A stretch of DNA of 64,000 nt, taken from positions 1 to 64,000 of the IMG/VR virus record IMGVR_UViG_2713896905_000004; one strand, written 5' to 3'. Numbering within the stretch: position 1 is the first letter of the stretch; the number at the start of each line of letters is the position of its first letter. Position numbers and translations under genes: made by a program. This DNA is from a virus (Duplodnaviria; Heunggongvirae; Uroviricota; Caudoviricetes). Positions 21,711-24,294 of the stretch are shown here, piece after piece. The notes beneath the pieces were generated by a model. The model had not been told where the DNA came from. It was given only the letters and a program-made list of their open reading frames with translations, and ran no database searches.

Positions 21711-22805
21711 TCACGAGAAACTCTTTTCTGATGTCAGCCAACAGTGCTCGTGCATATCTCTTGGTGGTTTTTCGACAAATGCCTCTTCAGCCACATCCCG
21801 CCAGGGAATTTGTTTAGCCCATTCAGCTATAGCGTTATGGTTTGCTGAGAATAACGGTATTGTATAGGTTTTCAGCCAGGTTAATGTGCTGGAGTTGTGC
21901 TTTTTGGCGTGATGTTCCGCATGATGTTTGGCGATCACGAGCGTAGGCACTACCCATTTACTACCGTCAGTCATTGTGAAGTGCATATTACGGGGCACAG
22001 ATGATTTTTCCATCACCTCGCGGACACCGGGAAATTCCCCTTTGATCAATCGGCGATATTTATCGCTATTGCACCCACCAAACTCTTTGGCTTTGTATTC
22101 AAGATATGCTTCAGAAACGAGAGGTGAATCCTCTGTGCTGAGAGTTATAGCCGTGAAAATACCAGCAGGATTGTTCTCACTATGGGCCAACCGGTGATGC
22201 GAATCATAAAAATACCCTTTCTCTCGTTCCGATGGTTTCGACAGCAACAGCAGGCGCGAATCATAACCGGTCAAATTGCCTGTTATCACAGCATGAGCGC
22301 GGTCGCTGATTTCTGCCGCGTTAATAACGATGAAAAGATCATGCGGCCCAGTAAAACCAGCCAGAGATTCTTCGTTATTCAGACAATAGTTTAAATATAC
22401 ACATCCCCATGCTTCACTGATATGTACCAACCCTTTTTCAGGGTGCAGTTTGAAATGATTGCCAAGAAAAGGGTGTTTCTTGATAACCTGCGCCCAATAA
22501 CAGCACATATAGTCAATTATATTGTTTCGACTATCGTTAATAACAGGAGAAACAACCACGGTACGGGAACACGAATACAGTATTGTTTGCAGGATGCTAA
22601 TCACTGCCACAACAGAGGTTTCACCAATACCATGCGGTGTGGTGGCAGTGACTTTGGCTCCTGTGTTCTTTATCGCGTTAATAATTTTTGCCTGATGAGG
22701 TGTTAACTCAATATCAAGCAACTCTTTTGCTGCCAGTTCCCAATTGTCTTTATACCGTTCTATCAGTGCTAACCAGGCAGATTCATTCTGTATACGATTA
22801 ATCAC
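21711..22805 (-). CDS. PacB (large terminase) N-terminal ATPase-domain paralogue with degenerate Walker A/B, lacking the C-terminal domain
   Basis: Aligns by eye to the window's own pacB: '[59 protein letters not shown]' vs 'SLAGFTGPHDLFIVINAAEISDRAHAVITGNLTGYDSRLLLLSKPSEREKGYFYDSHHRL'; Walker A GHGTGKS replaced by PHGIGET. Confidence 0.7.
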   Translation of the reverse strand: MINRIQNESAWLALIERYKDNWELAAKELLDIELTPHQAKIINAIKNTGAKVTATTPHGIGETSVVAVISILQTILYSCSRTVVVSPVINDSRNNIIDYMCCYWAQVIKKHPFLGNHFKLHPEKGLVHISEAWGCVYLNYCLNNEESLAGFTGPHDLFIVINAAEISDRAHAVITGNLTGYDSRLLLLSKPSEREKGYFYDSHHRLAHSENNPAGIFTAITLSTEDSPLVSEAYLEYKAKEFGGCNSDKYRRLIKGEFPGVREVMEKSSVPRNMHFTMTDGSKWVVPTLVIAKHHAEHHAKKHNSSTLTWLKTYTIPLFSANHNAIAEWAKQIPWRDVAEEAFVEKPPRDMHEHCWLTSEKSFS

Positions 22806-23586
22806 TTTCCACCTCTTCCGTAGTGTTTTCTTGCAGTTCTGTTAATGCAGCACGACACAGGGTCCGGGCATTGGCTATAGCCACACTTTTGACTTCATCC
22901 GTCATCGTGCAGGTAATGTACTGATCGAGTTCTTCAGCACGGATGATGCTTTTCCCAATCATAAACTCTATTTGCCAGAACAGATCGGCATCCATCGTCA
23001 GTATTTCAGCCTGGCCTTCTGGGCCTGCGGGGAAGCAAACATAAGACTGTTTGCCCAGGCCGATAACTCGACAACTTGCTTCAAGAATTGCGCGCTTGAG
23101 GTCTGACTTTGTAACGGAAACAGGTTGATTTTCACCAGTGATTACGCCGTTGACATGGAAGTGGAAGGGCATGTAGCTTGAAATTCGCTCTACTTTCCAT
23201 ACGCCAGCAAGCGATCCTTCATGCAGCACAATGGGGGTAACCGCGAGTTTCATCTCACCATATAACTGCTGGCAGATAGCTGGATTGCTGAATACATCCA
23301 AAGGCTCACATTCAAACAGCGGCGCAATCTGCATGAGGTCCATCATGGTCATCCCTGGGGTACGAGCAGTAATGAATTTGCGCATGCCAGTATCCATTGT
23401 TCGCCAGATAGCCACACCATGTTTTTTGCTCACTTCTTCAGTAAAGCCAAGGTGGCACATGATGGTCTTTTCGATAGCCAGATCGGAGATAGAAACCTTT
23501 TCTCCAGGTACACCATCATTATTGATGGTCACTTCGACGTTCTGGCCATTACGCAGGCGGTATTGAATTGCTTTAGTATTTTCCAC
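22798..23586 (-). CDS. hypothetical protein (262 aa)
   Basis: ORF in ssb operon, start overlaps downstream paralogue gene; no recognised motif. Confidence 0.5.
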   Translation of the reverse strand: MENTKAIQYRLRNGQNVEVTINNDGVPGEKVSISDLAIEKTIMCHLGFTEEVSKKHGVAIWRTMDTGMRKFITARTPGMTMMDLMQIAPLFECEPLDVFSNPAICQQLYGEMKLAVTPIVLHEGSLAGVWKVERISSYMPFHFHVNGVITGENQPVSVTKSDLKRAILEASCRVIGLGKQSYVCFPAGPEGQAEILTMDADLFWQIEFMIGKSIIRAEELDQYITCTMTDEVKSVAIANARTLCRAALTELQENTTEEVESD

Positions 23587-23592
23587 GTTAAA

Positions 23593-24294
23593 TTACTCCA
23601 CTACAAACCAGTCACATGCCAGCAGGTCACCTACAGAAGGCATCCATGGAACAACTACACCTTGTGCATTTTTCAAAACGAAATGCGCACCATAAGGAGC
23701 AAGAGGAGAGTCGAAATTGATTTCAAGCTCTCCGTTTGCGGCATGTTTTATAGGGGTTAGTCTTGAAGCACCCTGTTTGTCAGGAACCAGCCAGCAGAAT
23801 TGGTTTTCGCCGTTCCACCCGCGTCGAGCAACTTTCTTGCCATCCTTCAGCCACATCAGCGCGTCAGAGAAGTCGGCTGCTTCAAGGTCGATTTCTTCTT
23901 GCTGAGTAGTGATGCCACCAGCAGAGATAGTTACTCTCCCTGTAAGATTAGTTATCACGCCGTTGTCATCCGTAATGATGACCGTGGTTCCATTTTCGGA
24001 GGCGTCGTTAACCAGGCCGTAGCGTTCCTCAAATGGTTTCTCCGGGGCATAGAACAGATAACCGTTTTCATAAACGATCAGATACCCGCCAGTTTTTGGT
24101 CGGTGTTTTTGTAAAAACATTGCGTCAACACAAACTGTTGCCCCTTTTGGTTCAACGAGTTCGATGCAGCCCCAAAGTGGGGCATCAGTTACTCCGAAAA
24201 TAACAACATTTTTAATTTTCGATGCACTAACGTTTTTGTGAGCTTTGTATTTGGGAAGGAACTTAAAAAGCTCTTTCGTTGTCATGTTATTCAT
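23593..24294 (-). CDS. two-domain protein with C-terminal DUF2829 (Tad2-like) domain (233 aa)
   Basis: C-terminal 'FSDALMWLKDGKKVARRGWNGENQFCWLVP...GVVVPWMPSVGDLLACDWFVVE' matches the DUF2829/MW1434-like pattern (GKKV.R.GWNG ... PW.PS..DLLA.DW.V.E). Confidence 0.55.
   Translation of the reverse strand: MNNMTTKELFKFLPKYKAHKNVSASKIKNVVIFGVTDAPLWGCIELVEPKGATVCVDAMFLQKHRPKTGGYLIVYENGYLFYAPEKPFEERYGLVNDASENGTTVIITDDNGVITNLTGRVTISAGGITTQQEEIDLEAADFSDALMWLKDGKKVARRGWNGENQFCWLVPDKQGASRLTPIKHAANGELEINFDSPLAPYGAHFVLKNAQGVVVPWMPSVGDLLACDWFVVE

Follow-up and report, generated by a model that had tools for sequence, protein, structure and literature searches.

A predicted Tad2-family sponge with a Dec-like N-terminal extension, carried as accessory cargo by P1-like phage-plasmids

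The ssb-isaA locus

The window analysed here, a single stretch of 64,000 nt, is a P1-like phage-plasmid that shares 99.8% identity with an E. albertii plasmid. The region of interest is the gene string ssb-(tad2-like)-isaA-orf364, which lies entirely on the minus strand and is made up as follows.

21711..22805, minus strand: ORF of 364 aa, overlapping the isaA stop by 8 nt and sitting where P1 has IS1 and isaB
22798..23586, minus strand: isaA, 262 aa, a conserved P1/D6 backbone gene
23583..24290, minus strand: accessory cassette of 708 bp, delimited by blastn breakpoints against P1; P1 and MH422554 have 6 bp instead
23593..24294, minus strand: three-part ORF of 233 aa (Dec-like OB module, β stalk and Tad2 domain)
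24295..24491, minus strand: spacer of 197 nt between ssb and the next gene, conserved with P1
24492..24980, minus strand: ssb, the first gene of the operon (Pfam SSB, E = 7e−40; 100% identity to P1 Ssb)
25000..25016, minus strand: C1 repressor operator equivalent to P1 Op21/Ossb, overlapping the ssb promoters (ATTGCTCTAATTAATTT, one mismatch to the operator consensus)

The two ORFs called by the first-pass annotation, of 233 aa (23593-24294) and 262 aa (22798-23586), are both present on the minus strand and contain the peptides that it quoted. Downstream of ssb the genes are spaced by 197 nt, then by 6 nt, and then overlap the next ORF by 8 nt. No terminator-like site was found on the coding strand of the ssb-tad2-like-isaA string. 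An RNA element or terminator within the 197 nt spacer was ruled out, as the spacer has no Rfam match, its folding is not unusual (z = −1.17) and its coding strand carries no terminator. The spacer does hold a basic ORF of 60 aa (24309-24491), whose ATG overlaps the ssb stop codon and which stays open in the window, P1 and MH422554 (3/3). At the far end of the string, the 364-aa ORF belongs to PHROG 5902, is 90% identical to its MH422554 homolog and has a weak likeness to the ATPase of terminase large subunits (E = 5e−10).

Sites matching the C1 operator consensus number eight in the window, against 0.03 expected. The operator/promoter region upstream of ssb is identical in sequence to that of P1, where it is annotated as the C1-controlled Ossb with promoters P1ssb and P2ssb. 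Thus, early expression of the Tad2-like gene is plausible. The gene had been proposed to form an operon with ssb, and its position agrees with this: it lies under the C1-controlled ssb promoter/operator, on the same strand and with no terminator-like site in between. Co-transcription and timing are read across from the P1 annotation. By that analogy, the Tad2-like gene would be off in the lysogen and switched on early once infection or induction has lifted C1 repression.

An accessory cassette at the isaA start codon

A BLASTN comparison with P1 places the cassette between ssb and isaA, exactly at the isaA start codon and with clean junctions. The upstream junction falls directly after the shared ...AAGACTATGA, so the cassette uses the ribosome-binding site and ATG of isaA. 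Full-length homologs of the 233-aa protein are encoded in 231 of the ~620 P1-like plasmid records, and the gene is found in about a third to half of P1-like plasmids. The 233-aa protein is 99.6-100% identical to a RefSeq "DUF2829 domain-containing protein" of E. albertii. Among P1-type homologs, two stalk alleles (A and B) and three length alleles of an internal loop recombine freely; all six combinations were seen, which indicates recombination. The gene is accessory cargo of P1-like plasmids. It had been suggested that this is an early-expressed anti-defence cargo; the cargo part stands, the gene being accessory and missing from P1 and MH422554, while the early part is plausible from the P1-identical operator. 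The presence of Tad2 in P1/D6 phage-plasmids is largely catalogued already, both by the RefSeq DUF2829 name and by a 2025 preprint in which a DefenseFinder survey reports Tad2 in 56% of P1-type and 93% of D6-type phage-plasmids. Thus, the domain call itself adds little.

Two statements of the first-pass annotation about the surroundings had to be revised. The 262-aa ORF, which it lists as an unknown partner, turns out to be P1 IsaA (261 aa aligned at 96.6% identity, reaching the C terminus; PHROG 2326, E = 4.9e−149) and occupies the same position downstream of ssb as P1 gp017. Nor does the cassette sit where P1 carries IS1. The extra DNA (23583-24290) lies between ssb and isaA, and IS1 is on the other side of isaA, where BLASTN against P1 shows IS1 and isaB in place of window positions 21678-22796 (the 364-aa gene). 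IsaA is full length in P1 and belongs to the conserved backbone, whether or not a Tad2 gene lies beside it. The annotated P1 IsaA is extended by 58 N-terminal residues, but this stretch contains stop codons in the window and in MH422554 (2/3). The extension therefore probably reflects misannotation, and isaA is not interrupted by the Tad2-like ORF.

The C-terminal Tad2 domain

[quoted passage not shown]

23596..23892, minus strand: Tad2-family domain, residues 135-233
23809..23817, minus strand: W160-N161-G162, aligned with W25/N26 of SPO1 Tad2 and W21/N22/G23 of HgmTad2, which contact the ligand phosphate and ribose
23701..23775, minus strand: variable β2-β3 insertion loop, residues 174-198, pLDDT <50
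23626..23646, minus strand: W217-M-P-S220-V-G222-D223, aligned with W73/S76/T78/D79 of SPO1 Tad2 and W87/S90/T92/D93 of HgmTad2

The C-terminal ~90 residues had been assigned to DUF2829, and a Pfam profile search bears this out. Residues 141-232 match PF11195 "Tad2-like" (formerly DUF2829) at E = 2.7e−21 over profile positions 2-73 of 73, with 76.3 bits against a curated cut-off of 25 bits. PADLOC and NCBIfam gave no match for the protein. With phmmer it aligns to ModTad2, SptTad2, HgmTad2 and SPO1 Tad2 at 1e−13 to 4e−8, and the best 24 Foldseek matches of its predicted structure are all Tad2 structures. The predicted fold is that of the family, with an N-terminal helix followed by an antiparallel β-sheet with a short C-terminal helix.

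The C-terminal 99 residues retain the GWNG motif and the Trp, Ser and Asp of the C-terminal strand and helix. The residues W160/N161/G162, W217, S220 and D223 align with pocket residues named in the SPO1 Tad2 and HgmTad2 papers, and W160, W217, S220 and D223 are invariant in 47 homologs. By sequence, modelled fold and core pocket residues, the C-terminal domain clearly belongs to the Tad2 family. At the adenine-contacting Thr position (T78 in SPO1, T92 in HgmTad2) stands G222; ModTad2 has a Ser here. Since all Tad2 proteins share the core, and the periphery of this one is unlike that of both gcADPR and His-ADPR binders, we make no call of ligand specificity from the pocket residues. The 25-residue β2-β3 loop is the segment with three length alleles among P1-type homologs. 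In HgmTad2 and MoTad2, an insertion at this position builds a second pocket, for cyclic nucleotides.

The N-terminal Dec-like module

No Pfam family matches the N-terminal ~135 residues. This agrees with the earlier description of a Tad2 domain joined to a separate N-terminal part of ~140 aa, and the 233-aa protein is thus really a fusion. Two features make up this part.

24010..24258, minus strand: OB-fold β-barrel and following helix, residues 13-95, homologous to the OB-fold of the phage L decoration protein Dec
23896..23997, minus strand: short β-strand "stalk", residues 100-133, TTVIITDDNGVITNLTGRVTISAGGI, collinear with the C-terminal spike region of Dec and occurring as two alleles

Sequence and structure comparison show the N-terminal ~133 residues to be collinear with Dec (OB-fold, helix, β stalk), and the Dec-type OB-fold is detectable by either method. 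The phmmer alignment to Dec reaches residue 125; residues 100-133, which are rich in β-strand, show a weak alignment to Dec 99-121. The stalk is modelled at a pLDDT of 52-59, a low value that would make sense for a segment that needs an oligomer to fold.

Relatives of the OB module are fused to the PF24729 Acb2/Tad1 hairpin (P0200, E = 1.6e−18, and P0217), so the module recurs on different sponge families. It is also fused to the crAss001_48 domain (PF21825), and stand-alone copies occur too. We looked at whether the crAss001_48 domain is itself a relative of Acb2 and rejected this, as hhalign of the small profiles gave a probability of 0.6% and phmmer against the PDB returned nothing. Since the module also recurs on Acb2-type and crAss001_48 domains, the Dec-like OB-fold and β stalk would most likely help sponge domains to oligomerise or serve them as an auxiliary binding unit.

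What appears to be new at this locus is this N-terminal Dec-like module, shared with other sponge fusions. The Tad2 sponges characterised so far are all single domains of ~90-100 residues, whereas the widespread enterobacterial form bears a Dec-like OB module in addition. We tentatively raise the idea, which we hold to be a possibility well short of even, that the OB-fold and stalk are a general, unrecognised accessory domain of phage sponges. It would be shuffled onto Tad2, Acb2-type and crAss001_48 domains via a conserved junction (…GGI..QEEIDLEAADFSDALMWLK…), and would either add a ligand site or impose a different, e.g., trimer-based, higher-order assembly on the normally tetrameric Tad2. 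A changed assembly would fit with D6-type elements, in which this Tad2 domain is independently fused to a trimeric dUTPase. Either effect, if real, would alter how much the sponge can take up or which ligands it takes. A module that alters ligand range or assembly would also widen the known design space of viral immune-signal sponges, and would give a sequence handle for new fused sponge domains, the crAss001_48 domain being the obvious candidate.

Predicted function and alternative readings

We regard the 233-aa gene as probably an accessory anti-defence cassette, whose product, unusually extended at its N terminus, is predicted to be a Tad2-family sponge for the signalling nucleotides of bacterial immunity. 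Sponge activity has been demonstrated for Tad2 proteins. The Tad2 domain would oligomerise like known Tad2 proteins and may sequester a TIR-made, ADP-ribose-derived signal (3′cADPR, His-ADPR or N7-cADPR), so that the Thoeris effector would never be triggered. The variable β2-β3 loop may supply a second cyclic-nucleotide pocket, as it does in HgmTad2 and MoTad2. The targets of the family are diverse and include Thoeris I, II and IV, CBASS and Pycsar; with so many specificities, membership does not imply "anti-Thoeris". In the literature on Tad2 we found no assayed homolog from a P1-type element and no assayed multi-domain Tad2 protein, and the analysis of Li et al. was restricted to short versions. 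Tad2 is a homotetramer with its pockets between protomers, and in SPO1 Tad2 helix α1 mediates tetramerisation. In the monomer prediction the N-terminal fusion joins directly onto this helix, and a trimer-forming stalk would clash in symmetry with the D2 tetramer of Tad2. Escherichia, Shigella and Salmonella harbor P1-type phage-plasmids in abundance. These elements bear resistance and virulence genes, and their anti-defence cargo thus helps decide which hosts they can enter.

A Tad2-fold sponge could instead serve mainly for CBASS/Pycsar cyclic nucleotides or housekeeping c-di-GMP, bound through the variable insertion loop. Tad2 homologs do inhibit CBASS and Pycsar, the β2-β5 insertion of HgmTad2 binds cGG at pM affinity, and the equivalent loop is long and allelically variable here. 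However, no similarity between the loop and the HgmTad2 insertion could be detected, and the model leaves the loop disordered. The protein keeps the canonical ADPR pocket residues, which do not vary across the family, and Li et al. predict only ~1% of Tad2 proteins to be without gcADPR binding. We therefore think this reading unlikely. The protein shares its Pfam family with AcrIIA7; that it is an anti-CRISPR of this type is scarcely credible. Type II-A CRISPR-Cas is not known as a feature of Escherichia, which counts against such a role. In the hands of Li et al., inhibition of Cas9 was not reproducible with either HgmTad2 or its homologs, in vitro or in vivo, and Yirmiya et al. make the case for an anti-Thoeris role of the family.

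The Tad2-like gene and isaA might also form a two-gene module, in which IsaA could be, for example, a chaperone, an effector or a further anti-defence protein. Only 6 nt separate the genes in the window, and they are adjacent in two contexts, ssb-tad2-isaA in P1-type and cre...dut-tad2-isaA in D6 elements, and a D6-like Enterobacter plasmid has them one gene apart. Such a module seems improbable to us, since each gene also occurs alone: IsaA lacks a DUF2829 gene in P1, MH422554 and three remote loci downstream of cre-like integrases, and Klebsiella phage SopranoGao and a Klebsiella plasmid have full-length Tad2-like homologs with no IsaA nearby. The neighborhoods of remote IsaA homologs and of Tad2-like homologs outside P1/D6 rule out an obligate pairing. 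Furthermore, characterised Tad2 proteins act alone, and isaA is non-essential for P1 lytic growth. IsaA would thus be a neighboring backbone gene and no dedicated partner. The collinear likeness to full-length Dec (OB-fold, helix, β stalk) raises the reading that the protein is virion-associated, as a decoration or carried protein, and is no cytoplasmic sponge. We give this very little credence. The Dec capsid-binding residues K30, Y31, Y71 and E73 align with V31, I32, N77 and Y79, and Y49 aligns with a gap. The gene lies in a predicted early, C1-controlled operon rather than a late one and is absent from many P1-type phages, Acb2-type sponge domains also occur joined to this OB module, and a sponge outside the capsid could not reach cytoplasmic signals. 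With the capsid-binding residues not kept and the gene early, accessory and sponge-fused, we do not file the 233-aa protein as a decoration protein and retain the predicted Tad2-family sponge.

Comparison with known systems

ModTad2/MoTad2, from a Myroides odoratus prophage (PDB 9EIB, 8V3E), is a His-ADPR sponge against type II Thoeris that also binds cUMP/cCMP (Pycsar). It is a single domain of 89 aa, whereas the 233-aa protein has 134 extra N-terminal residues, a β2-β3 loop that is 9 residues longer and a Gly for Ser before the pocket Asp. SPO1 Tad2 (gp34.65; PDB 8SME/8SMF/8SMG) is the founding 3′cADPR sponge against type I Thoeris and a stand-alone domain from a Bacillus phage. It shares the fold (Foldseek TM to target 0.74-0.87) at ~30% identity. 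Its core contacts W25, N26, W73, S76 and D79 correspond to W160, N161, W217, S220 and D223, but its adenine and water contacts T65, D67, H71 and T78 are replaced by N, Q, V and G. HgmTad2/AcrIIA7 (PDB 8KBI-8KBM) is a dual sponge for gcADPR and cyclic dinucleotides. The sequence of its insertion is unrelated to our loop, which is predicted to be disordered, and its CDN contacts R31, S47, F70 and N85 have no confident mapping onto the 233-aa protein.

The hairpin domain of Acb2-family sponges (PF24729; e.g., Acb2_43, PDB 9PTQ) occurs fused to relatives of the OB module, but the 233-aa protein has no Acb2-type domain. P1 IsaA (YP_006486), the 262-aa ORF of the window, belongs to RD-2, a variable region of P1-like plasmids (Venturini et al., 2019). 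Dec of phage L (PDB 6E3C; 134 aa) is collinear with the first 133 residues of the 233-aa protein; it has an OB-fold, a short helix (FE..Y) and a β-rich stalk, and both proteins contain the motif P-x-x-GGYL...G.L.Y....FE..Y. Compared with Dec, the 233-aa protein has a shorter stalk and does not conserve the capsid-binding residues, and its gene, accessory and predicted to be early, joins the Dec-like part to a sponge domain.

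Gene order and regulation

The region shares 99.8% identity with NZ_CP117591.1, a 103-kb plasmid of E. albertii. It is also matched by ~620 non-mobilizable plasmids of ~90-100 kb from Escherichia, Salmonella, and Shigella, and by phages P1, SJ46, and others. We class the window as a P1-type phage-plasmid. The gene for the 233-aa protein is part of a compact string:

25000-25016, upstream of ssb: copy of the C1 operator, ATTGCTCTAATTAATTT, one mismatch to the P1 C1 operator
24492-24980 (-): ssb, head of the string
197 nt (-): spacer between ssb and the 233-aa ORF
24309-24491 (-): very basic 60-aa ORF, its ATG overlapping the ssb stop codon (TGAATG)
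23593-24294 (-): 233-aa ORF, after the spacer
22798-23586 (-): 262-aa ORF (isaA), starting 6 nt beyond the 233-aa ORF
21711-22805 (-): 364-aa ORF, overlapping the isaA stop codon by 8 nt

The ssb promoter/operator stretch is that of P1 base for base; the P1 annotation marks it as operator Ossb (Op21), under C1 control, together with the promoters P1ssb and P2ssb. Since these promoters are shared with P1 and no terminator-like site was found on the coding strand between 21300 and 25300, co-transcription of the string from the ssb promoters is plausible. The window holds eight C1-operator-like 17-mers (0.03 expected by chance), for example at 28850, 38645, 39121, 41086, 41169, 57899, and 63664. 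The scattered sites would fit a complete immunity regulon of the P1 type.

The C-terminal Tad2 domain

The first-pass annotation had assigned the C-terminus of the 233-aa protein to DUF2829, and the HMM search bears this out: residues 141-232 match PF11195 (Tad2-like, formerly DUF2829; E=2.7e-21). In a comparison with solved structures, the last 99 residues match ModTad2 (E=1.9e-13), SptTad2, HgmTad2/AcrIIA7, and SPO1 Tad2. The 24 top Foldseek matches of an AlphaFold2 model built from 47 homologues (mean pLDDT 75, Tad2 core 80-91) are all Tad2 structures.

Ligand contacts named by Yirmiya et al. and Li et al. were transferred through HMMER alignments. W25/N26 of SPO1 Tad2 (HgmTad2 W21/N22/G23) correspond to W160/N161/G162, and SPO1 W73/S76/D79 (HgmTad2 W87/S90/D93) to W217/S220/D223; W160, W217, S220, and D223 are invariant in the 47 homologues. 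The peripheral contacts differ from those of SPO1 Tad2, with Gly222 replacing the adenine-bonding Thr and N/Q/V replacing T65/D67/H71. We read the protein as a Tad2-family sponge whose ligand is most likely an ADPR-derived Thoeris signal. We name no single ligand because members of the family bind diverse nucleotides, so far 3'cADPR, His-ADPR, N7-cADPR, cyclic dinucleotides, and cUMP/cCMP. The variable loop (residues 174-198) is the β2-β3 insertion, the counterpart of the region that forms a second pocket in HgmTad2 and MoTad2. Two alleles of the stalk (residues 100-133) and three of the loop are found in P1-type elements, and all six combinations occur.

A Dec-like N-terminal module

In the model, residues 13-95 form a β-barrel and then a helix at high confidence (pLDDT 85-92). 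A profile of 23 homologues matches residues 23-98 of Dec, the decoration protein of phage L (PDB 6E3C; E=3.7e-5), with the common motif P-x-x-GGYL…G.L.Y….FE..Y. As a single sequence the 233-aa protein matches Dec at E=0.016-0.026, in an alignment that continues into the β-rich segment, and Foldseek matches the module to Dec at E=1.4e-3. In Dec, an OB-fold and a short helix precede a C-terminal spike, a trimeric β-helix that is disordered in monomeric Dec. The N-terminal 133 residues are collinear with this plan, and the low-confidence stalk model is consistent with folding only upon oligomerisation. We judge a decoration function unlikely. Dec's capsid-binding residues are not kept, the gene is accessory and probably early, the module is joined to a sponge domain, and in other proteins it is attached to different domains of sponge type.

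A profile search with the OB module returned 113 clusters, mostly with Tad2. In ten, a C-terminal crAss001_48 (PF21825) is the sole additional domain; three have the Acb2/Tad1 hairpin domain (PF24729), and several are stand-alone proteins of 85-110 aa. One of those with the hairpin, P0200, joins the module to PF24729 (E=1.6e-18) and also matches Acb2_43 and Dec in the PDB. Tad2 domains keep a nearly invariant junction, EIDLEAADFSDALMWLK, and are likewise joined to other N-terminal domains (among them a PGDWII-type domain, a helical one, and dUTPase) and to a C-terminal crAss001_48.

The crAss001_48 domain, a ~60-aa helical hairpin, is a recurrent C-terminal fusion to Tad2 or the Dec-like OB module (proteins P0068-P0120, P0167-P0207). 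These associations make it a candidate for a new sponge or oligomerisation domain; hhalign detected no relation to the Acb2 hairpin. In phage D6 (1932-3664), a dUTPase, a 146-aa DUF2829 protein, and an isaA homologue are consecutive and adjoin cre. The 146-aa protein is stalk plus Tad2 and lacks most of the OB domain. D6-related elements encode dUTPase and Tad2 as a single 241-aa fusion (P0059), in which the same …GGITTQQEEIDLEAADF forms the junction.

The cassette and the RD-2 hotspot

By BLASTN, homology to P1 and to MH422554, a P1-like phage, ends at 24291 and restarts at 23582, leaving a 708-bp cassette where both have 6 bp. The upstream junction falls immediately after the shared …AAGACTATGA, so that isaA's ribosome-binding site and ATG serve the cassette. 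The pair of ORFs had been placed where P1 carries IS1. P1's IS1 and isaB instead stand in for 21678-22796, the 364-aa ORF flanking isaA on the side away from the cassette, and P1 isaA is not truncated by IS1. Nor is the 262-aa ORF the unknown partner it was taken for; it is P1 IsaA, a known backbone gene (96.6% identical through to the C terminus).

Venturini et al. termed this locus the "RD-2" hotspot and recorded this layout in pTZ20_1P (96% identical at this locus) as two ORFs without assigned function, one "interrupting" isaA. The interruption is probably an artefact of P1's over-long isaA annotation. The 58-codon extension that this annotation adds at the N terminus includes stop codons in the window and MH422554 (two of three compared), whereas a 60-codon frame starting at the ssb stop is open and conserved in all three, which suggests that the P1 isaA start is mis-annotated. 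The ORF at 24309-24491 (-), in a frame different from that of the extension, is possibly an unannotated small gene.

The 364-aa ORF belongs to PHROG 5902, with a weak likeness to terminase-large-subunit ATPases (phrog_2, E=5e-10) and no match in Pfam. Since P1 has IS1 and the unrelated isaB exactly at this site, we read it as a second variable slot of RD-2.

Adjacency hints at a partnership between IsaA and the Tad2-like protein. The dut-DUF2829-isaA order recurs beside cre in D6, in a genomic context unlike the P1-type, and an Enterobacter D6-like plasmid has DUF2829, a single intervening gene, and then an isaA homologue. However, P1 and MH422554 have isaA but no DUF2829 gene, as do three remote loci where isaA follows a cre-like integrase, and IsaA is missing from the neighbourhood of two-domain Tad2-like homologues in Klebsiella phage SopranoGao and a Klebsiella plasmid. 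In E. hormaechei plasmid NZ_CP085744, a 221-aa ORF at 3627-4292 separates the DUF2829 gene from the isaA homologue and is another cargo in the same slot. Its annotation as "adenylosuccinate synthase" looks doubtful, as it has no Pfam match at E<=0.01.

Other loci in the window

Two further loci were noted:

12344-13213 (+): 289-aa protein with a Macro domain (PF01661, E=2.2e-19) and HxH repeats at its C terminus, between a 1172-aa tail-fibre ORF (8829-12347, ATGA overlap) and a tail-fibre assembly gene (13232-13816)
~13870-15920 (-): low-GC island (GC 0.34-0.38 vs ~0.48) encoding a GT4 glycosyltransferase (PF00534, E=3.5e-37), a hexapeptide acyltransferase, and a hypothetical 109-aa protein

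Macro-domain homologues adjoin tail-fibre genes in Gifsy-1, Salmonella phages SEN4/SEN5, and Escherichia phage Chuche. The island's glycosyltransferase also matches "GT4 in conflict systems" (PF20706), and PADLOC found no match in the island, which may be conflict or surface-modification cargo.

Proposed function and comparison with known systems

By sequence and model the Tad2-fold domain has an intact core pocket, and its gene is an accessory cassette with a P1-identical C1 operator upstream. The gene would be repressed in the lysogen and transcribed early upon infection or induction. The Tad2 domains would then assemble and sequester a TIR-derived ADPR signal, the variable loop possibly capturing a cyclic nucleotide too, and the effector would stay inactive. 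The OB/stalk module may add binding capacity or modulate assembly. The main difficulty is one of geometry. Helix α1 is the tetramer interface in SPO1 Tad2, and the N-terminal fusion is attached straight to it; a trimeric stalk would also mismatch a D2 tetramer.

The Tad2 call itself is ordinary, given the existing RefSeq name (DUF2829 domain-containing protein), the UniRef name of relatives ("Thoeris anti-defense Tad2 family"), and a 2025 preprint in which DefenseFinder detected Tad2 in 56% of P1-type and 93% of D6-type phage-plasmids. In PLSDB, 231 plasmid records among ~620 P1-like records carry a full-length homologue. Our literature search found no publication joining Tad2 to an OB-fold or tying DUF2829 to P1-like elements, and the analysis of Li et al. 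was confined to short Tad2 versions. Neither the Dec-like module nor its repeated occurrence on several families of sponge appears to have been described so far.
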